NCBI GenBank assembly: GCA_020723935.1
Contig: DYHY01000004.1
Span: 7,634 to 71,633 of the forward strand
DNA from: Candidatus Micrarchaeum sp.
Lineage (GTDB): Archaea > SpSt-1190 > DYHY01
Direction: 5' to 3'
DNA: 64,000 nt
Shown here: positions 2,345 to 18,196 of the stretch, one piece after another
How the letters are laid out: every line of letters starts with the position of its first letter
How positions within the stretch are numbered: the first letter of the stretch is position 1
Notes under the pieces: model-generated
The model's input: only the letters and a program-made list of their open reading frames with translations
Database searches by the model: none
What the model was told of the DNA's origin: nothing
Made by a program: the position numbers and the translations under genes

Positions 2345-2629
2345 TCGCCCTCGTCGCCGCAGCAGGATTCATCGTCTTCGCCGCAGCCGCATTCGCCCTC
2401 GTCGCCGCAGCCGCACGCATGTCCTTCTTCGTGTCCTTGTTTGTGTATCTCAAAATTACTTCTCCTTTTTTGGTCCGGGGACGGTATCTGGTATATAAAC
2501 TATACTGTGTCTCCCTGGAGGACGCTTTTTCGGCCGTCGGCGGGGGCTCCAGATGGCGCCGTCATCCGGACTTCAGGAGAGGTTCCCTTTGGGTTAGGAT
2601 TAAAACCGGGTTCCGGCGGGCTTCCTCCA

Positions 2630-3361
2630 ATGGAACCGCGGATTGTGGGGGTCGGAAAGGACGCTTCCGCCGAGAGGCTTCTCCTCGCCGGCCTGCGCTC
2701 GATAGGCCATTCCCCGGTGAAGAGGAATCCGGAGATCGTCGTCTCCCTCGGGGGCGACGGATCCCTCCTCAAGGCCGAGCGGCTCTATCCTGGCGTCCCG
2801 AAGCTCCCCGTGCGCGACAGGAGCATCTGCGAGAAGTGTGGGGACGGGAGGCTCGGCGCGCTCCTCAACGCCGCCCTCTCCGGGAAGCTCGCCGTGAAGG
2901 AATATGGGAAGCTGGAGGGGCGGGTGCTTCGGAAGGGAAGGCCGGTCTTTCGCGGGATGGCTGCAAACGACGTCGTCGTGCGAAACGACAAGCCCTACCA
3001 CGCACTCAGGTTCTCCCTGAGGATAAATTCAAGGCCCGTGGACGGGATAATGGTCGGCGACGGGATCGTGGTCTCAACGTCCTTCGGCTCCACGGGGTAC
3101 TTCCACTCCGTAACCGGGAGGCACTTCAAGGAGGGCCTCGTCGGCGTCGCGTTCAACAACCCGATGAGGGGCCGGGCGCCCGTGATCGGGAAGGCCCTTC
3201 GCGTGCGCCTGAAAATCGAGAGGAACCCCGCCGTCGTGTGCCTCGACAACGACAGGCGCATCTTCCTCGCAAGGGAGGGGGACGTCGTCGAGGCGAGGCC
3301 CTCGAAGGGGAAGCTGAGGATCCTGGGCGGCTGGACGTTCGGGAACGGGAAGGAACCCTAG
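2630..3361 (+). CDS. nadK: NAD(+) kinase
   Basis: GGDGSLL, NDVVV and DGIVVSTSFGSTGY motifs. Start taken at the internal Met (MEPRIVGVG) of track ORF 2441..3361. Confidence 0.85.
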   Translation: MEPRIVGVGKDASAERLLLAGLRSIGHSPVKRNPEIVVSLGGDGSLLKAERLYPGVPKLPVRDRSICEKCGDGRLGALLNAALSGKLAVKEYGKLEGRVLRKGRPVFRGMAANDVVVRNDKPYHALRFSLRINSRPVDGIMVGDGIVVSTSFGSTGYFHSVTGRHFKEGLVGVAFNNPMRGRAPVIGKALRVRLKIERNPAVVCLDNDRRIFLAREGDVVEARPSKGKLRILGGWTFGNGKEP

Positions 3362-4873: not shown

Positions 4874-5125
4874 CTAGTGGCAGCAGTCTCCTCCGGAGTG
4901 CCCGCGGGATTCCAGCTCGACCTTGCGCTCGAATTTCTCGAGGCAGTTCTTCGAGCAGAACCATTGGCCGTGGCGCTCCGTGGCGCTCCCTTCCTTCCTC
5001 TTCCTCCCGCATATCGGGTCCTTCTTCGTCTCGAACAGTCCGAACAGTTCCCTTCTACTCAGCTCCTTCTTTCCTTTCTCGCAATCTTGCCGGCCTTGCC
5101 CGCAGCCTCGTCCTCGCCGCAGCAA
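4874..5125 (-). CDS. TRASH/YHS-type metal-binding domain protein
   Basis: DPICGRK...WFCSKNCLEKFE matches the TRASH/YHS Cys pattern, like the CopA N-terminus at 15557. C-terminal GGDCCH. Confidence 0.6.
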   Translation of the reverse strand: MLRRGRGCGQGRQDCEKGKKELSRRELFGLFETKKDPICGRKRKEGSATERHGQWFCSKNCLEKFERKVELESRGHSGGDCCH

Positions 5126-6153: not shown

Positions 6154-7332
6154 TTAAGCCTTCTTCAGCGCGGCCCTCAAATCTTCAAGCAGGTCTTCCT
6201 TCGTCTCGATCCCGACGGAGAGCCTGACGAGGCCCGGCTCGACTGCTATCTGCGAGCCCGCGGTCGACGCGTGCGTCATCGCGAGCGGCACCTCGATTAG
6301 GGACTCCACTCCCCCAAGGGACTCTGCGAGCGGGAAGAGCCGTGTGCCCTCCGCGAGCCTCCTGGCGGCCCGTGCCCCGCCCTTCATCACGACGGAGACC
6401 ATCCCGCCGCCGTTCCTCATCTGCCGCTCCGCGAGGGAGTGCTGCGGATGGGACGGGAGCCCGGGGTAGAGGACGCGGGAGACCTTTGGATGGCCTTCGA
6501 GGAGCTCGGCGATTGCGAGCGCGTTCTCGGCATGCCGCTCCATCCTGACCGCGAGCGTCTTCGTCCCGCGCAGGATGAGGAAGCAGTCCATCGGGCCCGG
6601 GACCGCGCCGATGGCGTTCTGCAGGAACTTCAGGCGGGAATACATCTTCTCGTCGTTTAGGAGGAGCGCGCCCCCAACGACGTCCGAGTGGCCACCCAGG
6701 TATTTCGTCGTCGAATGGACGACGATGTCCGCCCCCAAGGAAAGGGGCCGCTGCAGGTAGGGCGTCGCGAAGGTGCTGTCGACTGCGACCTGCGGCCTCG
6801 CCCGGGACTTGCGGGCCAGATCCGATATCTCGCGTACGTCGCAGAGCGCCATGCGGGGGTTGGTCGGCGTCTCGAGCCAGACTAACTTCGTGTTCGGCAG
6901 GATGGCTTGCGCGACCGCTCCGGAATCCGATCCGTCGACATATGTGAAAGAGAGCCCGTACTGGCGCAGGACGCGCTCGAAGAGCCGGTAGGTGCCGCCG
7001 TAGACGTCGTTGCACGCGACCACGTGGCCTTCGGGTCCTACCGTGCGGAGGACCGTGTCTATCGCCGCCATCCCGGAGGAGAACGCGAGGCTGTGGCGCG
7101 CGCCCTCGAGCGCCGCGAGGTTCTTCTGAAGAGCCGTCCGCGTCGGGTTGTCCGTGCGCGAATAGTCGTATCCCTTGTGCTTCCCTATTCTTTCTTGGGC
7201 GTAGGTGGAAGTCAGGTAGACCGGCGTCATCACGGCGCCTGTCGACGGGTCGGGCGGCTGGCCCGCCCTGACTGCGAGAGTCTCGAATCCCTGTTCCTTC
7301 CCTTTCAGAATGCCCTTGTTCACGTAGGTCAT
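6154..7332 (-). CDS. cystathionine gamma-synthase/gamma-lyase family PLP-dependent enzyme
   Basis: 392 aa with the Cys/Met-metabolism PLP fold. PLP-lysine motif VHSTTKYLGGHSDVVGG. Confidence 0.85.
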   Translation of the reverse strand: MTYVNKGILKGKEQGFETLAVRAGQPPDPSTGAVMTPVYLTSTYAQERIGKHKGYDYSRTDNPTRTALQKNLAALEGARHSLAFSSGMAAIDTVLRTVGPEGHVVACNDVYGGTYRLFERVLRQYGLSFTYVDGSDSGAVAQAILPNTKLVWLETPTNPRMALCDVREISDLARKSRARPQVAVDSTFATPYLQRPLSLGADIVVHSTTKYLGGHSDVVGGALLLNDEKMYSRLKFLQNAIGAVPGPMDCFLILRGTKTLAVRMERHAENALAIAELLEGHPKVSRVLYPGLPSHPQHSLAERQMRNGGGMVSVVMKGGARAARRLAEGTRLFPLAESLGGVESLIEVPLAMTHASTAGSQIAVEPGLVRLSVGIETKEDLLEDLRAALKKA

Positions 7333-8402
7333 GTCGTTCCCCTTCCAAGCGTCTTGCTCTTTTTCTTCTTTTTCTTCTTCTTCTTCTTCTTCTCCCGCTC
7401 TTGCTCCGCGCCCCTGTTGCCGCGGAAACGCAGGACATGGGCCGCCAAAACTATCACGAGCAGGAGGAGGGCGCCCCCTAGCACCTTAGGATAGGGCCCG
7501 GAGGAAGAGGAGAGCGCCCTGCCCTGCACCGAATAGAAGTACTGCTTGAGGTGGAGGAAATCCCAGGTGTTGACGACGGAAGTCCCCCTGAATACGACAA
7601 ACGACAGGCCGATGAGCGCGAGGAACGCGCCCGACACCAGGTTCGTCGTGTGCAGCAGCAGGTCCTTCCCGAACAGGCGGACGCGCACCTCTTTTCCCCT
7701 GATAAGCGGGCTCTTCGCGAGGCCTGTGGAATCGTAGAAGACAGACAGGATGAAGAGCGGGGCGAAGATGCCCAGGGAATACGCGCCCATAAGGAGGCTA
7801 GCGTAGAGGACGTTCCCGAGGAGCGCCGCGACGGAGAGAATCCCGCTCAGTATCGGCCCGACGCAGGCGGTCCAGCCCAGGGCGAAAAGGGTGCCGGAGA
7901 CGAAGACCCCCGCGACGCCGTCGCCGCCGGGAGCCGGGGCGGTTCTCGGCCGGATGAAGGAGGAGAATCCCTTGCCGAGGGCGGTCATGATTCCCATCGC
8001 CATCAGGACGAGCCCCGCCACGAGGACGAGCTCCGGCCTCTGGAGCTTCAGGAGCGATTGCTCGCCGACGAATCCGGCGACCGCGCCGAACGCCATGAAA
8101 ACCACCGCGACCCCTAGCGAGAACGCGAGGGTCATCTTCGTCACTTCCGTTTTGCCTCCCGGCCGGAAGGTGTAAGAGAAGTACGCGGGAAGGAGCGGGA
8201 GGACGCAGGGAGAGAGGAGTGTGAGGGCGCCGGCAAAGAACGCGATGAGGAAGGAGATCTTCGCCTGGAAGTCCCTGGCATAGCCCTGGTTATAGTCCTT
8301 TATCTTCTGGAGGGCCGGCGGGAGAGCCGATGCGTCCGCCGCGAGGGCGGGCGCCAGGAGGACGAGCGCCAGCAGCGCCCGGCCCAGATCCATCCTATCC
8401 AT
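7329..8402 (-). CDS. ccdA: cytochrome c-type biogenesis protein CcdA (DsbD-family) with 100-aa C-terminal extension ending in poly-Lys
   Basis: LSPCVLPLLPAYF and a second conserved Cys in the TM core. Extra TM helices. EKKKKKKKKKKK tail encoded by a (TTC)n run. Confidence 0.75.
   Translation of the reverse strand: MDRMDLGRALLALVLLAPALAADASALPPALQKIKDYNQGYARDFQAKISFLIAFFAGALTLLSPCVLPLLPAYFSYTFRPGGKTEVTKMTLAFSLGVAVVFMAFGAVAGFVGEQSLLKLQRPELVLVAGLVLMAMGIMTALGKGFSSFIRPRTAPAPGGDGVAGVFVSGTLFALGWTACVGPILSGILSVAALLGNVLYASLLMGAYSLGIFAPLFILSVFYDSTGLAKSPLIRGKEVRVRLFGKDLLLHTTNLVSGAFLALIGLSFVVFRGTSVVNTWDFLHLKQYFYSVQGRALSSSSGPYPKVLGGALLLLVIVLAAHVLRFRGNRGAEQEREKKKKKKKKKKKSKTLGRGTT
7358..7393. repeat. (TTC)n microsatellite encoding the poly-Lys tail of CcdA
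   Basis: ctttttcttctttttcttcttcttcttcttcttc on the plus strand. Confidence 0.8.
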
Positions 8403-8406
8403 CCTA

Positions 8407-8991
8407 TCAGTTCACCGCCAAGGTTCCCCTCATCAAGCTGTGCCCGGAGCCGCAGGGGCGGTTGCAGAAGAATGCGAAACGCCCCTGCCTGTCCGCGGTG
8501 AACTCGACGACGACCGGCGCGTCCCCGGGGGAGAAGGACTGCGTCGCAACCCCATAGTCGGGAAGGGTGGGGCCGTGCGTCCCCGACGTGCTTGTTAGAA
8601 CGAGCCTAACGCGGTCTCCCTGGCTCACGGTTGTGGTCGACGAGTTCCAGCCGAAGGAGTATGCCTCGACCTTTATCTCCTTCATGGGCGCCTGGCCCGC
8701 CGTCGAGGAGGTGGGCGAGCTGGAGGATGAAGAGGAGGGGGATGAAGAGGAGAGGGATGAAGAGGAAGGGGATGAAGAGGAGGGGGATGAAGAGCCCTGC
8801 GAGCTTGATGTCGAACTGGATGGACTTCCTGAGCCAGCCGAAGGCATCCCCGCGTCCTGCGCTGGCCCCGTCACGCATCCCGCGACCAGGACCGCCGCCG
8901 CCAGCAGAACGGCCGCCACAACCGCAAAGGAGGCGGCCGTCTCGGGCATAGCCTTCCCGATGTTTCCCCTGAATCCCGATGCGTATCCCAT
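8407..8991 (-). CDS. cupredoxin-like (CuA-type Cys/His/Met motif) lipoprotein with Ser-rich linker
   Basis: Lipobox LVAGC after a hydrophobic signal. About 45 aa of SSSP-type linker. C-terminal FFCNRPCGSGHSLMRG resembles the CuA CxxxCGxxHxxM motif. Confidence 0.6.
   Translation of the reverse strand: MGYASGFRGNIGKAMPETAASFAVVAAVLLAAAVLVAGCVTGPAQDAGMPSAGSGSPSSSTSSSQGSSSPSSSSPSSSSLSSSSPSSSSSSSPTSSTAGQAPMKEIKVEAYSFGWNSSTTTVSQGDRVRLVLTSTSGTHGPTLPDYGVATQSFSPGDAPVVVEFTADRQGRFAFFCNRPCGSGHSLMRGTLAVN
8690..8810. repeat. 12-nt tandem coding repeats (ggatgaagagga-like) encoding the Ser-rich linker
   Basis: Five near-identical units. Antisense reading gives the EDEEEGDEEE artefact ORF 8567..9220. Confidence 0.7.
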
Positions 8992-9014
8992 TTCCGTCCT
9001 TTCATCCTCCCGTT

Positions 9015-10000
9015 CTTATCTCTTTCCCGCCGTCCCGTTCGGAACCACGACCGAGCCGTCGGACAGGTTCCTATACGGCAGGCTGAATATCTCGACCGTC
9101 TGGAAGACGTACGTCCCGTCCCGCTCGACCGTCCCAACGTACTTCCAAGAGCCGTTCAGCGCCGGATACGCATCCACGTCGCCGTTCAGGATCGCCGTAG
9201 GGACGAGGAGTATCCCGTAGCGCGAGAGAAGCTCCTTCCCCCTCAGCCGAGAATATGTCGACGGATTTCTCGGCTTGCACGGCCGCCCCGACCTTGGCCA
9301 AGACCTTCTTGTGTATGGGCCCGGGATCGTAGCAGGACGCGCACGAGGCGTCGCGGACTATCGTGAGGTTGACGTACCCGACGGCCCGCCCGAGGGAAGC
9401 GTCGTAGTAAGGCGGAAGGGGTTTCTCGGCCACGTAGGCGGAACCGTCGGCTGAGAGGGGGGCCGTGCTGAAGATTCCGGGAAGGATGCCCTCGTACGCC
9501 GAAAGCTCCCCTGAGAGGACGACAGCGGGGAATTTCGAGAGGGAATACTCGAGCGCGAGCGAGCGTCCTTTGGGGGAAGACAGGTTCACCTGGCTGATGC
9601 TTCCCAAGCCCACCCCAGCTAGGCGCAGCTGGCTTAGGAACGGAAGGGAGCCCGCGCAGGACAGGGCATAGATTACGGAAACGTTCACTATTCCTGCGAC
9701 CGACCCGCTAGAGACGTCGAAGTAGAAGGGGTCTGGAGAGGAAAACACGATTGCGTCGCCAGAAAGCCTTCCGCCGGGAACCGCTTGCAGGGATTTCGCC
9801 TTCCCTATCTCGCCCGTCACGATCACCGCCGGAAGACGCGTTATCCCGTACCTGGAGATTAGGGGAGCAACCAGGGAGGAGCCGAAATCCAGGTCGTCTT
9901 GCGATGCCACCCGCACTCCGGCGGACTTGCGTATGGAATCTGCCAGGGCCGCGGGCGATGAGCACCTGCCGCAGTCGGCCTTGACTACTATGGTAGTCAT
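9015..10000 (-). CDS. protein with three tandem thioredoxin/glutaredoxin-like repeats (CGRC, degenerate SCAGS, CASC); C-terminal repeat in shifted frame
   Basis: MTTIVVKADCGRC...RYGITRLPAVIVTGE; YSLSKFPAVVLSGE; then SRYGILLVPTAILNGD only after a shift at a GGGGG run near 9240. Track ORF 9071..10000 ends in Arg-rich junk. Confidence 0.5.
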
Positions 10001-10269
10001 GGAGACGTCCGCCGGGAGGGGCGCTCCTGCTCGGTTCGGACGGCCGAGCCCAGGATTCTGGAGAGCGAGGAGGACGAGAGGAGGTCAACGGACGCGAACA
10101 TGACGAGGGCCGCCGCGAGGGCGAGTACGAGGCCTTCCCTCCTAAAAACCCCGGGAGGCTCCGGCCCGCGCGATTCCGCTGCCTGCCTACTGCTCCGCCT
10201 CGTCTCCATCGCCATCTCGCAAGTATTGTGCCCCGGGGGGCGCGCTCTCTTGATTCCTGAATAGAACAA
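9997..10269 (-). CDS. small single-TM protein, translationally coupled to the thioredoxin-fold gene
   Basis: Its stop overlaps the downstream ATG (ATGA). One hydrophobic helix LVLALAAALVMFASV. Confidence 0.3.
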   Translation of the reverse strand: MFYSGIKRARPPGHNTCEMAMETRRSSRQAAESRGPEPPGVFRREGLVLALAAALVMFASVDLLSSSSLSRILGSAVRTEQERPSRRTSP

Positions 10270-10319: not shown

Positions 10320-10556
10320 CTAACAGCCACCCACCTGCTGGGGAAGACTCGCAAGGCTCTTGGGAACCGAGCCTCCCGACGCCGCGGCGATGCCTCCGCT
10401 GTTGCTGCCTGCGGCCTCGGACGCTGCGAAGAGCTCCCCGAGGGAAACCTTCCCGTCCGAGACCTTCGTCCTAAGCTCGTTCAGCTGGAACGTCTGCGCC
10501 GCGGAGACTACCACGAACACCGCGAGAATCGCCGCGAGTATCTTCGTCTGGTCCAT
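10320..10556 (-). CDS. small membrane-anchored protein ending in the SLPQQVGGC motif
   Basis: N-terminal TM ILAAILAVFVVVSAAQTF. C-terminus ...SLASLPQQVGGC followed by a stop. Confidence 0.45.
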   Translation of the reverse strand: MDQTKILAAILAVFVVVSAAQTFQLNELRTKVSDGKVSLGELFAASEAAGSNSGGIAAASGGSVPKSLASLPQQVGGC

Positions 10557-10603: not shown

Positions 10604-11416
10604 TTAACACCCGCCGACCTGGCTCGGGAGGCTCGCGGCGCCCGGCCCCGCGTCCCCGCCCGCCACATTGAGACCCAAGGTAACCATGTCCTTGGGGAAG
10701 AACAGGGTCTTCCACTTCATCGCCTCGTAGAGTATCTGCCCGTCGGAGTAGTTCGGCCTGTTCGCCGAGAGCCAGAGGGCCACGGAGAGCATCGCCGGGT
10801 TGTGCTGGCAGCCGCAGAGCGAGTTGCCGTTGGAGTCAGCTCCGGTCGGCCCTATCCCGCAACAGTACTCGCAGGAAATGCCGACCGGCTTGGTAGCGAA
10901 GCCTATGAACCTCTGGAACGCCTCAGGGTTGTTCTTCTTTACGTCGTCCTTGAGGCTCGGATAGGATTTCGCGAGGAGGTCGAGCGACTTTATCGGGTCG
11001 TCGAAGCTCACTCCCATCTCGGTGCCGTACTCGGGGGTGCCCGTCGGGAACATCGCCGCCATCGCCCCATCGGCCGTCTTCATCTTGTCGAGGGGGAAGA
11101 CCGCGGCGATCGTGTCGGCCGTGGATTTTATCTTCGAGACGTCAACCTTGGAGAGGTCAGCTCCGTCGGAGCTCCCGGCCTGGAGGACGCTCGAGAGAAA
11201 CCCTATCGAGGGCCCTTTGGCCCCGCCGCTGCCGTAGAGGGCGCCGGATATCGCGAATATCTGGGCCTGGTTGACTGCGAGGAGTATCGCCGCTATGACA
11301 ATGAGCGCTATCACCGGGGCGCCCAGCCTCATCGCGCCGGATTCCCTCTCTGCCGCCCCCTTCTCGGGAGCTGCCTTGGCCGCAGTAGCTTGCGTAGCAT
11401 GATGCCTTTCCGCCAT
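10604..11416 (-). CDS. membrane-anchored Cys-rich protein ending in SLPSQVGGC (paralog of 10320..10556)
   Basis: TM VIALIVIAAILLAVNQAQIF. Middle domain with CEYCCGIGPTG...CGCQHNP. C-terminus AASLPSQVGGC. Start possibly the internal Met at 11332. Confidence 0.5.
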   Translation of the reverse strand: MAERHHATQATAAKAAPEKGAAERESGAMRLGAPVIALIVIAAILLAVNQAQIFAISGALYGSGGAKGPSIGFLSSVLQAGSSDGADLSKVDVSKIKSTADTIAAVFPLDKMKTADGAMAAMFPTGTPEYGTEMGVSFDDPIKSLDLLAKSYPSLKDDVKKNNPEAFQRFIGFATKPVGISCEYCCGIGPTGADSNGNSLCGCQHNPAMLSVALWLSANRPNYSDGQILYEAMKWKTLFFPKDMVTLGLNVAGGDAGPGAASLPSQVGGC

Positions 11417-11466: not shown

Positions 11467-11486
11467 CCGTGAAAAAACAGTGAAAG
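11467..11486 (+). promoter_or_regulatory. 20-bp motif CCGTGAAAAAACAGTGAAAG (direct GTGAAA half-sites) overlapping the regulator start codon; TATATTTAAAA box upstream
   Basis: Reverse-complement copy at 13252..13272. AT-rich box at about 11441-11452 in a divergent intergenic region. Confidence 0.45.
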
Positions 11487-13228
11487 AAGGGGAAAACCAG
11501 CCTGCCGCGCAGCAGCGGGGCGTTTTCGCGAGCCAGAGGTCGGTCCTGGCGCTCTCCTTGGCGCTCCTCCTGATGGGCGCGGTGGTCCTGGTGAACTTCC
11601 TGTCCTTCTCCAAGGTCGGGGGGGTTATGGAAAGCCAGCTCCTGGACCGCCAGCAGATAGCGGCCGACTACGCGGCGTCAAGGATCGAGGAGCACATCCA
11701 TCAGGTCAGTATGGAGGTGACGACGCTTTCCAGCTTCCCCGCGCTGAAGAACCTCGACCTGAGCCAGTGCAGCGGGGACGTGAAAATAATACACCCCAGC
11801 CTCGAGGGCAAGACGAAGGTACTCCTGCGGGTTGACGCTCTCGGGAACATCGTGGAATGCTCGTCCCCGAATTACAAGGGATACGTTGGCTTGAACGTCA
11901 GGAACAAGGACTATTTCAAAGTCCCGGCCGAGACGGGGGCTTCCTATGTCTCGGGCCTCGCGAGGGACGGGAGCGACTACAATGTCTTCGTCTCCGCCCC
12001 CATCTTCGAGGGGGGGTCTGGAGGAACATACCCCAATAACGGCGAGTTCGGGGGAATACTCCTAAGCATCGTGGGCCTCCAGGACCTCTACGACCTCTAC
12101 ATACACCCAATAGGGCCGATGGGCAGGGACCTCTTCGTCCTCGCGAGCGTGGATGCGGGCGACACCGTGATGAAAAGCCAGGGCGCCCCTGACCTGGGCG
12201 GCCTCGGCAAGGTGCACGAGATAAGGGATTATGCCGGGACGGGCAGGACCATAGCCGTCTCCTCCGACCTCTCCCTCGGGAGCGAGAAGTTTCGCCTCTT
12301 CATCCTCACACCCCTCGCCAACGCAGACAAGGAGATACGGGACGTCAGAGCGGGCTACCTGTTCTCCCTGTTCTTGGCCGTTTCGGCCATCCTGGGCGCC
12401 CTCCTTCTCGCGGCTTCGGCGTACCTGTCGCGCGAGAGGATAAGGACGCAGCTCGCGCGGACCACAGAGACGCTCGAGAGCCTCGGGATCACGGTCGAGA
12501 CGGAACGGAGCGGATATTCTCCTACCGACATCGTCCTCGAGCCCCACAAGGTCTACCTCCTTAAGGAGGACGGGGAGACGAGCCCCCACGACCTCTTCAT
12601 TGGGATGCTCTCACATGGCTTCGCGGGCCTCGGCATAGTGAGGGACGACCCCAGGGAGCTGCGGAAGAAGTACAGCCTCAAGAAGACTTCGTTCATATGG
12701 CTCTCGGAGGCGGGCGGGGGCCGGGGCGTCCCGGCCGAGACCAAGATCGAGACGCTCCTCGGCCTCGCCAGGGAGTTTGTGGAGAGGAGCGAGAAGAGCG
12801 TCATATTGATAGACCGGCTCGACTACCTGATATTCGAGAACGGCTTCGAGCGGGTCCTCAAGGCGGTGTACGCCCTCCGCGACCTCGTCGCGAGGAGGAA
12901 GTGCGTCGTGATAATCTCGGCCAACCCCGCGGTCATACCCAAGGAGCAGATGGAGGCGTTCAGCGCGGAGACGATCGACCTCTTCGGCGGCAGGGCCGGG
13001 GCCGGCCTCTCCAAGGACGAGGCCGAGCTGCTCTCGTTCGTGAACGAGGGGAACGTCGCGAGCAGGCTCGTCTCCTACACGGACGTGACGGAGCAGCTTG
13101 GGATAACGAAGCCCACCGCCCGAGCCAAGATCCGGCGCCTGCAGGACGCGGGCTTCCTCTCCGTCGAGAAGGTCGGGCGGGTGAAGGCCGTGCGGATAAC
13201 GTCCCTGGGCAGGAAAATCATTTCCTGA
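11480..13228 (+). CDS. membrane-bound one-component regulator: N-terminal TM, extracytoplasmic sensor domain, second TM, DUF835-like (P-loop-less RecA/KaiC-like) domain, C-terminal winged HTH
   Basis: TM helices at about 22-42 and 295-318. Cytoplasmic part has IWLSE...VILIDRLDYLIFENGFE...CVVIISANPAVI. C-terminus ...QLGITKPTARAKIRRLQDAGFLSVEKVGR. GTG start. Confidence 0.65.
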   Translation: MKEGENQPAAQQRGVFASQRSVLALSLALLLMGAVVLVNFLSFSKVGGVMESQLLDRQQIAADYAASRIEEHIHQVSMEVTTLSSFPALKNLDLSQCSGDVKIIHPSLEGKTKVLLRVDALGNIVECSSPNYKGYVGLNVRNKDYFKVPAETGASYVSGLARDGSDYNVFVSAPIFEGGSGGTYPNNGEFGGILLSIVGLQDLYDLYIHPIGPMGRDLFVLASVDAGDTVMKSQGAPDLGGLGKVHEIRDYAGTGRTIAVSSDLSLGSEKFRLFILTPLANADKEIRDVRAGYLFSLFLAVSAILGALLLAASAYLSRERIRTQLARTTETLESLGITVETERSGYSPTDIVLEPHKVYLLKEDGETSPHDLFIGMLSHGFAGLGIVRDDPRELRKKYSLKKTSFIWLSEAGGGRGVPAETKIETLLGLAREFVERSEKSVILIDRLDYLIFENGFERVLKAVYALRDLVARRKCVVIISANPAVIPKEQMEAFSAETIDLFGGRAGAGLSKDEAELLSFVNEGNVASRLVSYTDVTEQLGITKPTARAKIRRLQDAGFLSVEKVGRVKAVRITSLGRKIIS

Positions 13229-13251
13229 CATTCTCGGCGGTTTGCCGGCGG

Positions 13252-13272
13252 CTTTTCACTGTTTTTTCACGG
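13252..13272 (-). promoter_or_regulatory. inverted copy of the 20-bp GTGAAA motif, 45 nt upstream of the 13316 operon
   Basis: cttttcactgttttttcacgg is the reverse complement of ccgtgaaaaaacagtgaaaag. TTTAATAT box follows at about 13296. Confidence 0.45.
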
Positions 13273-13315
13273 TTGTTTCGCCTTGCTTTAATATGGTGCT
13301 TTCTCCGTTCCCCGC

Positions 13316-13915
13316 ATGGAAAACGAAAGCAAGGCCGCAATCCCGGTGCTCGCCGTTGCCGCGCTCGCGGTATTATTGGCGCTCTTCGCGCTCCCCCTCG
13401 CGGGGGCGTATGCGTACGAGGGGAACTTCACCAAGGAGGCTCTCGCGATAATAGCGGCGAATGTGTCGTGCGGCTCGATAACCGAAGCACAGCTCGAGAC
13501 CCTGGGCGAATACTACAAGGAGCTCATGCATCCGGGCGCGGCCCACGAGGCTATGGACCAGATGATGGGTGGCGAGGGGTCTGAGTCCCTGCGGCAGGCG
13601 CACGTCGGAATGGGCCGGGCGTTCCACTGCGGCGCTTCGGGAAGCTTCAGGGGGATGATGGGCCTCGGCTACAGGATGGGCATGATGGGCGGTCCTTATT
13701 ACGGGGGATACACCGGCTACGGCGGGGGGATGATGGGCGCGTCCTATGCTACTCCTTGGTATCTGGTGCTCGTCAACGTCCTCTACTTGCTCCTCCTCCT
13801 GGGTGCGGTGATTTTGGTCTTCATCTGGGTCGTGCGGTCCTGGAGGGCGCTCAACAGCGGCGCCCGGCAGGAAGCCGGGAGCGGCCCGGTAAGGAAGCCT
13901 GCGAGGCGGAAATAA
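13316..13915 (+). CDS. secreted, C-terminally anchored Met/Gly-rich protein (Met-motif Cu-binding type)
   Basis: Signal peptide. MMGGEG, GMMGLGYRMGMMGGPYYGGYTGYGGGMMG. C-terminal TM helix. Confidence 0.5.
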   Translation: MENESKAAIPVLAVAALAVLLALFALPLAGAYAYEGNFTKEALAIIAANVSCGSITEAQLETLGEYYKELMHPGAAHEAMDQMMGGEGSESLRQAHVGMGRAFHCGASGSFRGMMGLGYRMGMMGGPYYGGYTGYGGGMMGASYATPWYLVLVNVLYLLLLLGAVILVFIWVVRSWRALNSGARQEAGSGPVRKPARRK

Positions 13916-13916
13916 G

Positions 13917-14582
13917 TTGGGCGGAACGGACGGAAAGGCGGCGGACGCCGTCTTCTACGCAATACTCATCGTTGCGGCTGCCGGGGCGACGGGAATAGCC
14001 ATCCTGTCGGCATTACAGCCTCCCTCCCCGGCAGCCCCAACTTCATTCGGCCCGCGCGCAACGAAGCTCACCTCATTCGACATATCGCTCGCGCAGGGGA
14101 TGATGGACAGAAACGGCGACGGGAAATGCGATTCCATGGGATCGTCGGTCGAGGGCGAGATCCTCGCGAACAGGCTCCAGTGCATGGGCGACCCCAACGC
14201 GACGATAGGGCAGCTCGGCTCCTCGCACCACCACGCGGACTTCAAGGTCTACGTAAACGGGCTGCCGACGGATTTCAACGACCCGAAATACTTCGTCAGG
14301 AGCTCGTTCGCCCATGTGGAGCCCGACGAGGTTTTGGGGGCGACCGGGACCGTCTTGCACCTCCACGCGACGGGAGTCCCGTTATGGGTCTTCTTTAAGA
14401 GTGTGGGGATGGACCTGGACGGGGCGAAGATCCTCGTGAACGGCGCGGAGAGTGGTCTGCTAGGGGACTATGCGCCGTCAAACGGCGACAGGATACTGGT
14501 GTCTTACGGAAACGCTACGCAAGGGGAACTGAAGAGAGAAATGGACAGCGTCACTGACTACGCGGCGATGGGGAGGGTCTGA
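13917..14582 (+). CDS. secreted protein with His motifs (SSHHHADFKVYVNG, HLHATG)
   Basis: N-terminal TM/signal. No recognisable family. Lies inside the copper gene set. Confidence 0.45.
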   Translation: MGGTDGKAADAVFYAILIVAAAGATGIAILSALQPPSPAAPTSFGPRATKLTSFDISLAQGMMDRNGDGKCDSMGSSVEGEILANRLQCMGDPNATIGQLGSSHHHADFKVYVNGLPTDFNDPKYFVRSSFAHVEPDEVLGATGTVLHLHATGVPLWVFFKSVGMDLDGAKILVNGAESGLLGDYAPSNGDRILVSYGNATQGELKREMDSVTDYAAMGRV

Positions 14583-14584
14583 AA

Positions 14585-15526
14585 ATGACTTCCACTGGCG
14601 CCTACATTTTCTCGTACCTGCTCTATATGGCGGTGCTCTCGGGCGCCGCCCTCTACGTCTGGAAGTACAGGAAGGGCCTCGACGAGATGTACGGCATGAT
14701 GATGGGAATGACGTTTGGCACGGTCGCAGGTCTTGCGACCGGCCTCTTCTACGCCCTCCCGAGCGGCGACTTTGTCGGCGGGGCGATTGTCGGGACCGTG
14801 GCCGGGCTCCTCTTCGGGATACTGCTAGGGGTGATCGGCGGGCCCCTCGGGATAATGGAGGGCGTTATGGGCGCCTTCATGGGGGGCTTCATGGGCTCGA
14901 TGACGGGGCAGATGGCGCGCCCGTTCCCGCTGGGCGCGTTCTCTCCGGTCTTCGCGGCGATATTCCTCGCGATGATGGCGGGGATCACCTATGCCGCGGA
15001 AACGGGCAAGACCTGCTGCGCTCCCGCGGGGGGTAAGCCGGAGGCGCCCGAGAGGCCGAAGCTGGTGAACCCGTCGGGCAAGTTCGTCGCCACGTGGACA
15101 GTCGTCGCCGCAATCCTCCTCTTCGCGAGCTTCGCGATAGACCTCTCGCCGTACTCCGCACAGGGCGCCCAGTCGACTGGCACGCAGAGCACGGCTCTTC
15201 CGGCGTCGCTTCGGGCGCTCACGGAGGAGCAGCAGACCCAGGCAGTCCAAAAGGACGGCTACCAGGAAGCGTCATTTAGGGTGACCGCGGGGAGGTACAC
15301 GCCTAACGTCATAGTCGTCAAGGCTGGGACGCCGCTTAGGCTGAACATCGCAGCAGACAGGAACGCCGGATGCGGGACTGACATCGTCTTCCCGGATCTC
15401 AGGGTGCGCTCGCTCATCCCCCCGGGGACGTCCAAGACGGTCGAGGTGGGGACCCCGTCCGCGGGGAACCATTCGTTCTCCTGCTCCATGGGCATGTTCC
15501 GCGGAAAAATCGTCGCGGTCGGTTAG
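14585..15526 (+). CDS. Met-rich polytopic membrane protein with C-terminal cupredoxin-like domain
   Basis: MMMGMTFG...GVMGAFMGGFMGSMTGQM TM region. C-terminal VKAGTPLRLNI...CGTDIVFPDL...HSFSCSMGMFRGKIVAV. Confidence 0.55.
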   Translation: MTSTGAYIFSYLLYMAVLSGAALYVWKYRKGLDEMYGMMMGMTFGTVAGLATGLFYALPSGDFVGGAIVGTVAGLLFGILLGVIGGPLGIMEGVMGAFMGGFMGSMTGQMARPFPLGAFSPVFAAIFLAMMAGITYAAETGKTCCAPAGGKPEAPERPKLVNPSGKFVATWTVVAAILLFASFAIDLSPYSAQGAQSTGTQSTALPASLRALTEEQQTQAVQKDGYQEASFRVTAGRYTPNVIVVKAGTPLRLNIAADRNAGCGTDIVFPDLRVRSLIPPGTSKTVEVGTPSAGNHSFSCSMGMFRGKIVAVG

Positions 15527-15556
15527 TCAGTTAAAAAGAGGTAAAGGGGGAGAAGA

Positions 15557-18196
15557 GTGAAAATGGCGATGGAAAAGGATCCTATATGCGGCATGAATGT
15601 CGACCCGCGGACCGCGAGGTTCAAGGGCGAGAAGAGTGGGAGGACATACTACTTCTGCAGCAAGTCCTGCATGGACGCTTTCCTGGGGGGCGGCGAGGAG
15701 GGCGTGGGGGAAGAGGGGCGCCATCGCGGCGACGGGGAACCGGAATCCGGGAAGGAAGAAGGACTCCCGCAAAAAGGCCCGCCGAAGAGGATGTTCAGGA
15801 TAAAGGGCATGCACTGCGCTAGCTGCGCGATAACGATAGAGAACAACCTCAAGAAGCTCCCAGACACCAGGGCGAGCGTCAACTACGCCTCCGAGAAGGC
15901 CTATGTCGAGGGGCCCGCGACCGACGCGCGGGTCATGGCGCGCGTGAAGGAGGCTGGCTACGAGGCGATCCCGGCTTCCGACAGGCCGGGGGAGATGGTC
16001 CTTGAGATATCCGGGATGGATTCCATGCACTGCGTCGGGATCGTCGAGAGCTCGCTCAAGCGCGTGCACGGGGTCTCCGAAGTCAAGGTCAACCTCGCCA
16101 CGGGCAAGGCGAGGGTCGCGTTCGACCCGGCAAGGGCCCATGCAAGCGACCTCGTCAAGGCTGTGAAAGCCGTCGGCTACGGCGCGATGGCGTCTAGCGA
16201 GAAGCGCGACGAGCACGCCGAGGAGCAGCGGGCGGAGATACGCTCCTACCTCTCCCGGATAGCGGTATCTTTCTTCTTCGCAATCCCTCTCCTCTACCTC
16301 TCGATGGGGATGCTCGTGGGCCTCCCGGTGCCGGAGTTCAAACCGTTCGAGCTGGGGCTCCTGGAGCTGGCGCTCGCTACGCCTGTGATAGTCGCGGGCC
16401 GGGGCTTCTACACGCGCGGCTTCAAGTCGCTCGCGAACCTCACGCCCAACATGGATTCTCTCGTCGCCATAGGGACGGGGGCTGCATACGTCTACAGCGT
16501 CTACGGCGTCGTCTCAGCGTACTACGGCGCGTCGCCGGAATACTATTTCGAGGTATCCGCGCTCCTGATAGCTTTCATACTCCTCGGGAAATACCTGGAA
16601 TCGGCCGCAAAGGGCAGGACGTCGGAAGCGATAAAGAAGCTAATCGGCCGGCAGGCCAAGACGGCGACCGTCGTCCATCACGGAGTCGAGACCGAGATCC
16701 CAATAGAGGAAGTGGCGATCGGCGACATCGTCATCGTCAAGCCCGGCCAGAAGATACCTGTGGACGGGACCGTCACCGAAGGGAGGTCCACCGTCGACGA
16801 GAGCATGATAACGGGCGAGAGCGTCCCCGTCGGGAAGGGCCCGGGGGACGCCGTGATAGGTGCGACGATGAATAAGACCGGCGCCTTCAGGTTCAAGGCA
16901 GAGAAGATAGGCGCCGACACGATGCTCGCGCAGATAGTGCGGATGGTTGAGGAGGCTCAGGGATCCAAGGCGCCGATACAGGCGCTCGCCGACAGGGTCT
17001 CGGCCTATTTCGTCCCGGCGGTCGTCGGAATCGCCCTCGTATCTTTCCTCGCGTGGCTCTTCCTCGCGGGCAAGCCGTTCCCGTTCGCCCTCACGATATT
17101 CATATCCGTCCTGATAATCGCCTGTCCCTGCGCCCTGGGCCTCGCGACGCCCACGGCCGTGATGATGGGGACGGAGAAGGGGGCCGAGAACGGGATACTC
17201 ATCAAGACGGCCGAGGCCCTGCAGATGGCCGGGAGCGTCGGAACGGTCGTCTTCGACAAGACCGGGACTCTCACAAAGGGCGAGCCTTCCGTGCCGGACG
17301 TCGCAACGGTCGCAGGCGGCGAGGAGAACGACGCCCTCGACTACGCGGCGGCCATAGAGAAGAACTCCGAGCATCCCCTGGGCGAAGCGATAGTGAGGTT
17401 CGCCGCCGAGAAGGGCATAAGGCCGGAGGCCGTGAACGAGTTCAGCTCGATCACGGGGAAGGGCATCAAGGCGTTCTACAGGAACAAGCTAGTGCACCTG
17501 GGCAACAGGGCGCTCATGGATTCGGAGGGGATCCCCTACCGCGCGTACGAGGACAAGACGTCCGGGCTCGAGGGCGAGGGGAAGACAGTCATGTTCCTCG
17601 CGGTCGACAGGAAGGTGATCTCGCTCATCGCGGTCGCGGACACCCTCAAGGAGCATTCGAAGGAGGCCGTCGCCGAGCTCGGGAGGCTCGGGATAGAGAC
17701 GGCCATGATAACGGGCGACAACGAGCGGACGGCCAAGGCGATAGCCTCGCAGGTCGGGATAAAGACCGTCCTCGCGCAGGTCCTTCCCGGCGAGAAGGCC
17801 GAGAAGGTGAAGAGCCTCCAGGAGGGGGGGAAGCGCAAGGTCGCGATGGTCGGGGACGGGATAAACGACGCGCCCGCGCTCACCCAGGCAGACGTGGGGA
17901 TAGCGATAGGCTCAGGGACCGACGTCGCGATCGAGTCAGGGGGGATAGTCCTCGTCAAGGACGACCTGCGCGACGTCGTGAAGGCGATACGCCTGAGCAA
18001 GTACACGATGGGGAAGATCAGGCAGAACCTCTTCTGGGCGTTCTTCTACAACCTGATCGGGATTCCGGTGGCCGCGGGCGCGCTCTTCCCGTTCACGGGC
18101 GGGCTGCTCAACCCCGTGGTAGCCGGCGCCGCCATGGCTTTCAGCAGCGTGAGCGTTGTCACGAACACGCTGACTATGAAGGGGTTCAAGTTGTAG
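15557..18196 (+). CDS. copA: copper-translocating P1B-type ATPase with N-terminal TRASH/YHS domain and two HMA domains
   Basis: DPICGMNV...[12 protein letters not shown]; two GMxCxxC HMA motifs; [10 protein letters not shown]; DKTGTLT; [10 protein letters not shown]. Confidence 0.9.

Follow-up and report, generated by a model that had tools for sequence, protein, structure and literature searches.

A five-gene operon conserved in DPANN archaea, with a triple-thioredoxin protein, CcdA and two proteins ending in a cysteine tail: a possible thiol relay for copper handling

The stretch of DNA analysed here, referred to below as the window, comprises 64,000 nucleotides of contig DYHY01000004.1 (positions 7,634 to 71,633, forward strand) of the Candidatus Micrarchaeum sp. 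assembly GCA_020723935.1, and its G+C content is about 63%. From 11416 to 7329 its minus strand carries a run of five genes whose junctions are short or overlapping (Table 1): bigGGC, smallGGC, the gene for a triple-thioredoxin protein (Trx3), a CuA-type cupredoxin and a CcdA-type membrane transporter. The homologues of the encoded proteins come from DPANN archaea, and three of the five proteins are still without a name or an assigned family. A first-pass annotation, made from the sequence alone, had described the last three genes as a module for thiol redox and copper. They make up the downstream half of the operon, which has five genes and is conserved among DPANN archaea; the gene set had been incomplete, since the two upstream genes, which encode proteins with a cysteine at the very end of the chain, lie outside the limits given for it.

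Table 1. Features of the window discussed in the text, the operon first (ORF, open reading frame; positions count from the first letter of the window)
Feature	Position	Strand	Remarks
bigGGC	10604-11416	-	270 amino acids; first gene of the operon
smallGGC	10320-10556	-	78 amino acids
Triple-thioredoxin protein (Trx3)	9016-10269	-	read as one gene; repaired product of 399 amino acids
Frameshift site 1 in Trx3	10018-10021	-	CCCC run; one C added fuses the transmembrane ORF 9997-10269 to the thioredoxin ORF
Frameshift site 2 in Trx3	9238-9242	-	GGGGG run; one G removed joins ORF 9071-10000 to 9016-9177
CuA-type cupredoxin, probably lipoprotein	8407-8991	-	194 amino acids
CcdA-type (DsbD superfamily) membrane thiol-disulfide electron transporter	7329-8402	-	357 amino acids
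Cys/Met pyridoxal phosphate (PLP) enzyme	6154-7332		start overlapped by the CcdA stop
Cache-like/DUF835/winged helix-turn-helix (HTH) membrane sensor/regulator	11480-13228	+	582 amino acids; divergent, 63 bp from the bigGGC start
Met/Gly/His-rich membrane protein	13316-13915	+	adjacent copper-type operon
His-rich 'HIH' protein (HHHADF...LHLHATG)	13917-14582	+	adjacent copper-type operon
Met-rich transmembrane protein with Cupredoxin_1 domain	14585-15526	+	adjacent copper-type operon
P1B-type ATPase with YHS and two HMA domains	15557-18196	+	adjacent copper-type operon
Small protein with YHS-like motif	4874-5125	-	83 amino acids
Other frame switch	about 5974	-	GGGG
Other frame switch	about 20633	-	GGGGGG
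Other frame switch	about 24940	+	GGGGG
Other frame switch	about 25230	+	TTTT
Other frame switch	about 37780	+	
Other frame switch	2433-2645	+	

In the sequence of record the Trx3 gene is interrupted twice. The 90-amino acid transmembrane ORF at its 5' end terminates in ...TEQERPSRRTSP and a stop codon; one C added to the CCCC run changes this to ...TEQERPLPADVSMTTIVVKADCGRC, and the junction in the fused product then reads ...ERPLPADVSMTTIVVKADCGRC. Both frames are open at this junction, the thioredoxin frame upstream to 10084 and the transmembrane frame down to 9997. At the second site the removal of one G restores the third repeat (...SAEGKELLSRYGILLVPTAILNGD...), and this join is the frame correction that had been foreseen at first pass. 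Assuming an ATG start at 10215 the repaired Trx3 has 399 amino acids and aligns with its family from end to end, with no garbled stretches. Because a one-base repair fuses the ORFs, the product aligns over its whole length and both frames are open, 9016-10269 is one gene, in which the 90-amino acid 'transmembrane protein' is the predicted N-terminal anchor of an outward-facing triple thioredoxin. The view that it is a tiny separate protein, translationally coupled to the thioredoxin gene, has to be given up, since the fused product matches anchored homologues full length. For the annotation this means that the 90-amino acid 'transmembrane protein' and the 309-amino acid 'hypothetical protein' of the record belong to a single gene.

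Both frameshifts more likely originate from errors of the assembly, because they lie in homopolymer runs and similar frame switches at such runs recur elsewhere in the window. A codon-usage scan finds them, on the same strand, in at least four other genes (Table 1). For one of the four other suspected frameshifts there is support from Pfam, as the match to an Aminoglyc_resit domain breaks off right at the switch, at position 58 of the 149 in the profile; the remaining three are indicated by the codon-usage scan only. If the frameshifts were real, Trx3 would be a pseudogene in this genome and the module inactive or decaying, which we consider unlikely. Decay would account for two frameshifts inside 1.2 kb, for a CxxS in repeat 2 that no other family member has, together with a three-residue deletion beside it, and for a G+C content at third codon positions of 0.69-0.79, which is lower than that of most neighbouring genes (about 0.77-0.90). 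It is harder to reconcile with the location of both shifts in homopolymer runs of the kind affected in the other genes, a pattern typical of indel errors in an assembly, with a repaired protein which is alignable full length and keeps five of six catalytic cysteines and all three conserved prolines, and with the intact state of the flanking operon genes.

The repaired protein is composed of a transmembrane helix (residues about 27-62) and three thioredoxin-like repeats of about 100 amino acids, carrying the motifs CGRC (82-85), CAGS (187-190) and CASC (292-295). All three motifs had been seen at first pass, and the claim of three related repeats is borne out by profile-profile comparison, in which they are mutually homologous (E values 2.6e-24, 3.7e-24 and 2.1e-43). 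The AlphaFold2 model of the corrected product is confident (pLDDT 86.5, pTM 0.70) and shows helix 27-62 followed by three beta-alpha-beta-alpha-beta-beta units. In each unit the CxxC site lies between beta1 and alpha1, and the invariant or near-invariant prolines P129, P230 and P339 stand immediately before beta3 of their respective repeats. The best matches of the model in the PDB, according to Foldseek, are all proteins with multiple thioredoxin domains: ERdj5, PDI, PfPDO (probability 0.99), ERp44, calsequestrin, QSOX and the N-terminal domain of AhpF. Their low TM-scores are expected because the arrangement of the domains differs. The fold check proposed at first pass for the frame-corrected product accordingly gave three thioredoxin folds. 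Of the motif [RK]YGI..P..I..G[ED], said to follow every repeat, this holds for repeats 1 and 3, but repeat 2 reads EYSLSKFPAVVLSGE.

The Pfam family Thioredoxin_3 (PF13192) is matched by the repaired Trx3 with 26.8 bits, above the cut-off of 24.8, whereas the unrepaired ORF reaches 16.9; 18 of 19 members of the Trx3 family match it. An exhaustive profile search recovered 793 Trx3 representatives at E<=1e-30, nearly all of 355-500 amino acids and with one full-length match. Four proteins of 480-500 amino acids (P0142, P0143, P0144 and P0220), in which the profile is matched in two stretches, may be versions with four repeats. The homologues listed have 370-408 amino acids, each with a Lys/Arg-rich N-terminus and one transmembrane helix, and every homologue examined carries an (A/E)xExxRP motif ahead of the first strand. 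Among 61 full-length members an N-terminal hydrophobic helix is present in 59, and CxxC is conserved in 60, 60 and 61 for repeats 1, 2 and 3, respectively; all three sites are therefore under selection. Usually the sites of the family read C-x-[DE]-C, with F or Y as the next residue. The middle site, which had been regarded as inactivated, is indeed CxxS in the window copy, but its first cysteine is kept and this copy is a unique outlier of the family. Database names of the homologues are 'hypothetical protein' or generic, such as the JGI entry 'protein-disulfide isomerase-like protein with CxxC motif'.

Synteny was analysed in 80 loci from species-representative genomes, anchored on bigGGC, whose six-frame ORFs were scanned with our own hidden Markov models (HMMs); the non-redundant loci numbered 82. 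Most of the loci are labelled as Woese-, Nano-, Micr- or Aenigmatarchaeota; some bear the nominal labels 'uncultured Methanosarcinales', 'bacterium' or 'Binatia'. The conserved gene order is bigGGC, smallGGC, Trx3, in some loci the CuA cupredoxin, and CcdA. In 68 of 79 loci the smallGGC gene comes no more than 1.2 kb after bigGGC, and in 53 of 66 Trx3 is found within 3 kb downstream of bigGGC. Among the 34 loci with flanks of at least 5 kb CcdA is found in 32, Trx3 together with CcdA in 29. Retrieval by Trx3 gave the same picture: in the first three neighbourhoods the same two small genes were found directly upstream, with CcdA or cupredoxins nearby, and three further loci agree, so that of the six loci anchored on Trx3 all have bigGGC and smallGGC directly upstream and four have CcdA. 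Seven loci besides the window have the exact order Trx3, cupredoxin and CcdA (L011, L015, L066, L068, L069, L072 and L079), so that the possibility, raised at first pass, of a synteny not conserved anywhere falls away. As DPANN genomes are tiny and the order is kept across Woese-, Nano-, Micr- and Aenigmatarchaeota, the operon likely matters for envelope biology. The grouping of CcdA, cupredoxin and thioredoxin made at first pass stands as to the three identities. As to partnership it does not, since the cupredoxin is an accessory component, found in about 30% of loci, and the constant partners of Trx3 are the two proteins with a cysteine tail. Extra thioredoxin proteins with a single domain (Trx144, Trx1) are frequent in the cluster.

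SmallGGC is made of an N-terminal transmembrane helix, a flexible Gly/Ala/Ser linker and the tail LPQQVGGC-COOH, which holds its single cysteine. BigGGC has an N-terminal transmembrane helix and a helical domain with the invariant motifs PTGTPEYG…GVSFDDP and CEYCCG…CGCxH, and ends in LPSQVGGC-COOH. Neither protein matches a Pfam or NCBIfam family, and a HMMER search with bigGGC gave no link to PDB or Pfam. A near-invariant tail, [LV]Px[MQ]VGGC-COOH, is in this way present on two otherwise unrelated membrane-anchored proteins in about 80 DPANN genomes, and it brings to light a new conserved C-terminal cysteine tail. The tail-cysteine proteins are likely clients of Trx3, at least as likely as the cupredoxin.

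Such tails could also be carriers. The GGC tails would then act as swinging-arm cysteines of the SoxY type on the cell surface, holding sulfane sulfur or Cu(I), with Trx3 and CcdA regenerating the thiol in roles like those of SoxW/SoxS and SoxV, and with the cupredoxin as electron partner or additional client. The near-invariant octapeptide on two unrelated proteins agrees with such a system, and smallGGC has nothing besides its anchor, the flexible linker and the tail with its one cysteine. There is also a precedent in SoxV, an orthologue of CcdA by which SoxW, a periplasmic thioredoxin, is reduced (Appia-Ayme and Berks 2002, as cited in PMC10451225). A few loci, among them the window, also have a rhodanese or a Cys/Met PLP enzyme, but the former was found in three only and the latter in two only (the window and L027). 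Given further that homology to SoxY or SoxZ and other Sox genes are lacking in these loci, and that the tail may instead be a signal for processing, docking or lipidation, we regard this carrier function as doubtful.

The identity of the CcdA protein, as judged from its sequence, is secure. It matches Pfam DsbD_TM (PF02683) with 64.9 bits (8e-18; cut-off 27.1) and the DsbD model of NCBIfam at 3.5e-11. Its two only cysteines, C66 (SPCVLP) and C180 (TACVGP), are both within hydrophobic segments, and the assignment to the DsbD family made at first pass is upheld by the Pfam score and by this placement. The hydropathy profile has about six core segments, an N-terminal signal-like segment and two extra hydrophobic segments at the C-terminal side. 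At the C-terminus (7338-7400, minus strand) there is a run of eleven lysines, encoded by (AAG/AAA)n. The last codons of the gene overlap the start of the PLP-enzyme gene, and a Cys_Met_Meta_PP gene is also near the operon in L027.

A CcdA gene next to a membrane-anchored thioredoxin is the classic arrangement of System II cytochrome c maturation, and the operon might be read as its thiol branch (CcdA-ResA/CcmG-CcmH-like), with bigGGC as a CcmH-like apocytochrome reductase. A heme-handling protein with a WWD motif (CcsA, CcmC or CcmF) is, however, absent from all 90 sequences (89 loci and the window), and no ORF of at least 80 amino acids in the window contains CxxCH. When the profiles of bigGGC and CcmH are compared, the probability is 0.4%, and the HMMER search mentioned above gave no link either. 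This candidate was rejected as very improbable.

The cupredoxin consists of a signal with a lipobox-like VAGC (residues 36-39), a Ser/Pro-rich linker of about 50 amino acids and a cupredoxin domain of about 95. Its motif predicts a complete set of CuA ligands, H139...C176-x3-C180-x3-H184-x2-M187, and together with the lipobox this agrees with the secreted CuA-like lipoprotein recognised at first pass. Among the NCBIfam models its matches are limited to the CuA ends of L-NosZ (6e-17) and CoxB (2e-8); with Pfam COX2 the protein scores 20.1 bits, slightly under the cut-off of 22. The NosZ profile covers it only at positions 377-478 of 480, with a score of 61 against a cut-off of 700. Membership in NosZ or COX2 was rejected, as the protein of 194 amino acids is a CuA domain alone, with no N-terminal beta-propeller or CuZ of NosZ. 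Since only the CuA ends of NosZ and CoxB are matched, the sequence places the window cupredoxin with the short extracellular 'nosZ-like' CuA proteins of DPANN archaea, which failed to complement a Pseudomonas nosZ mutant (Zhang et al. 2024, mBio, PMC10936187). Like these it is short, extracellular by prediction and without CuZ domain, has C-x3-C-x3-H and matches the NosZ HMM at E of about 1e-17. The published description differs in that it mentions no linkage to CcdA or a triple thioredoxin and finds mostly acyl-carrier-protein genes around the gene, which it confines to oxygen-deficient zones; here the gene is found also in metagenome-assembled genomes from groundwater and sediment, inside an operon. 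Cupredoxins of this nosZ-like CuA type lie within the thiol-redox operon in L008, L012, L013, L014, L064, L066, L068, L069, L072 and others. In or beside the operon of five loci (L001, at 9312-10085, L010, L026, L027 and L044) are homologues of the Pfam family LGT (prolipoprotein diacylglyceryl transferase), and their presence beside lipobox-bearing cupredoxins hints at lipoprotein maturation of bacterial type in these archaea.

Two types of regulators are found upstream of the operon and divergent from it. One is a BlaI-like repressor with an M56/M48 BlaR1-like protease, in 41 loci, the other the Cache-DUF835-winged HTH protein, in 13 including the window, where the product matches Pfam DUF835 (1e-25) and HTH families. 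BlaI/M56 and DUF835-winged HTH regulators never occur together in the loci scanned.

Copper genes are frequent in this neighbourhood. CopA-like ATPases are present in 14 loci, CopZ-like HMA proteins in nine and DUF411/CopG in eight, and L087 has CopZ and CopA immediately after Trx3. Among the 23 loci fully flanked by about 10 kb on both sides CopA, CopZ or DUF411 is present in nine and any copper-associated gene in 18. For genomes of about 1 Mb that hold roughly one CopA each, this frequency would be far above chance. The copper link suggested at first pass is independently supported by these nine loci and by the operon with a P1B-type ATPase which adjoins in the window. Copper is the best-supported theme of the operon, not the sole one.

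Several further genes of the neighbourhood deserve mention. The divergent operon of the window (11480-18196) resembles a copper-export island, and homologues of each of its genes recur near the Trx3 operon elsewhere. Two His-rich families accompany CcdA and the GGC genes, have no credible Pfam match and may bind metal: 'HWH' (HWHA...ICGE...HTHD...H) in 34 loci, for example at 4253-4852 of L003 and 4272-4928 of L005, and 'HIH' (H.HADFK.Y.NG...H.HATG) at 2010-2708 of L003 and in the window. The small protein with a YHS-like motif (DPICG...HGQWFCSKNCLEKF) ends in GGDCCH; its match to Pfam YHS (1e-4) is under the cut-off, and it has homologues near the operon in five other loci.

The protein identities, the fold, the reading of Trx3 as one gene, the conservation of synteny and the abundance of copper genes nearby were observed here; from them we infer a direction of electron flow, a set of clients and a role for copper. 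The operon would encode an extracytoplasmic thiol-reducing or isomerase relay for copper handling, working by analogy like ScsB/ScsC and TlpA, a reading to which we assign a probability of about 0.6. CcdA would take up reducing equivalents in the cytoplasm, move them through the membrane by way of C66 and C180 and pass them to Trx3, tethered outside by one N-terminal helix and offering three CxxC sites per chain. Because of its linkage to CcdA, Trx3 is expected to be kept reduced and to work outside the cell on surface cysteines, either reducing their disulfides or isomerising them. Its candidate clients are the cysteine cluster of bigGGC and the cysteines of the LPxMVGGC tails of bigGGC and smallGGC. 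Where a cupredoxin is present, its two bridging CuA cysteines, which are required as thiols before copper insertion, may be clients too. The system would sit in an island for copper handling or copper stress, analogous to ScsB/ScsC, to DsbD/DsbC and to the action of TlpA on CoxB. A delivery of reducing equivalents to extracytoplasmic Cu or Cu-cysteine centres had been proposed at first pass. The CcdA linkage and the copper context speak for such a delivery, but the cupredoxin is accessory and the GGC tails are at least equally likely recipients.

A number of observations weigh against this copper relay, besides the signs of possible decay in the window copy of Trx3 described above. The CuA cupredoxin is present in only ten of the 34 well-flanked loci, about 30%, and canonical copper genes are missing from 14 of the 23 fully flanked ones. 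Anchoring on bigGGC biases the sample toward operons that hold it, which the six loci anchored on Trx3 partly offset. Rhodanese, peroxiredoxin and ArsR-type genes recur near the operon, so that the signal could be one of thiol, sulfur or oxidative stress and not of copper, and DsbB and DSBA-like genes in some loci leave room for an oxidative role. The CxxC dipeptides of Trx3 fit no characterised class of reductase, oxidase or isomerase; it is therefore the CcdA linkage alone that speaks for the redox direction.

Some of these points would equally suit a machine for oxidative folding or general disulfide isomerisation, similar to PDI and ERp46 and not specific for copper, which serves cysteine-rich surface proteins of DPANN archaea. 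Many exported proteins would then have their disulfides made or rearranged by Trx3, and the part of CcdA would be only to keep Trx3 reduced and competent as an isomerase. Three tandem catalytic thioredoxin domains, the top matches of the model to ERdj5, PDI, ERp44 and PfPDO, the DsbB and DSBA-like genes, the frequent Trx144 and Trx1 and the loci devoid of canonical copper genes are in line with it. Three features make it improbable. The regulators that adjoin the operon are of inducible type, which suggests a stress response over housekeeping folding; nearby copper genes are much commoner than by chance; and the tight, ordered linkage to two specific tail-cysteine proteins indicates dedicated clients.

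As a more tentative extension of the copper relay, the operon may specify a hitherto unrecognised thiol system of the DPANN surface, in which the two LPxMVGGC-COOH proteins act as swinging arms that capture or hand over Cu(I) or sulfane sulfur, and Trx3, fed by CcdA, regenerates the thiols including the CuA cysteines. If true, this would be a main device for envelope defence or metal acquisition in host-attached organisms with almost no redox metabolism. The operon also offers a testable context for the stand-alone DPANN 'nosZ-like' CuA proteins, that of a thiol-reducing relay beside copper-export genes.

Literature searches for triple thioredoxins, the MVGGC tail, the operon, and DPANN archaea with DsbD or CcdA found nothing relevant. 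The closest known systems are compared in what follows. The ScsB/ScsC system, which confers copper resistance, couples a DsbD-family transporter to a thioredoxin-fold isomerase, ScsC, which binds Cu(I) and is trimeric in Proteus and Caulobacter (PMC5524982, PMC8900818, PMC3322552). The Scs systems of Salmonella, Proteus and Caulobacter share with the Trx3 operon a transporter of the DsbD superfamily, an extracytoplasmic thioredoxin-fold protein and a copper context. The ScsC trimer brings together three catalytic thioredoxin domains, and Trx3, with three on one chain, would be its covalent counterpart. ScsC is, however, DsbA-like, contains a helical insert and trimerises through a stalk at its N-terminus, whereas Trx3 has minimal Thioredoxin_3-like repeats of about 100 amino acids and a transmembrane anchor, and no Pfam DSBA match is among the families listed for it. 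ScsB has periplasmic domains, while the CcdA of the window is of the small type without large ones. Beyond the fold there is no sequence homology, and one system is proteobacterial, the other archaeal. Formal membership in the Scs system was rejected, as the repeats have no helical insert and CcdA no large periplasmic domains; the likeness is in the working only.

A precedent is TlpA, a thioredoxin anchored in the membrane: until metallation it maintains the two CuA cysteines of CoxB, and likewise the cysteines of ScoI, in the reduced form (PMC6669012). Like TlpA, ResA and CcmG, Trx3 would be an outward-facing thioredoxin anchored in the membrane and fed by CcdA or DsbD, and the relation of TlpA to CoxB is the one proposed for Trx3 and the neighbouring CuA cupredoxin. 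TlpA differs in having one thioredoxin domain instead of three; near the Trx3 operon there is no Sco or PCuAC chaperone, cytochrome oxidase or heme-handling protein, and its CuA protein is, unlike CoxB, a stand-alone domain. The PDI family (ERp46/TXNDC5, ERdj5) and PfPDO (1a8l) also have tandem thioredoxin folds with more than one CxxC per chain. PDIs belong to the eukaryotic endoplasmic reticulum and have CGHC sites and non-catalytic b domains, and PfPDO is cytoplasmic with two units; the Trx3 family, in distinction to both, is predicted to be extracytoplasmic and anchored by a transmembrane helix, with three catalytic units and C-x-[DE]-C sites.

SoxY ends in a GGCGG-COOH tail. The VGGC-COOH tails of the operon are similar as Gly-rich C-terminal tails with a cysteine, adjoined as in Sox by a CcdA homologue and a thioredoxin, but the SoxY/Z fold, SoxAX, SoxB and SoxCD are missing, the proteins here are membrane-tethered and the resemblance is one of logic only. 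The logic of the relay is already known from these systems. What is new is the architecture, in which a single chain anchored in the membrane unites three catalytic thioredoxin domains, a new form for reductive pathways that depend on DsbD or CcdA, together with its partners and its conservation across the lineage.

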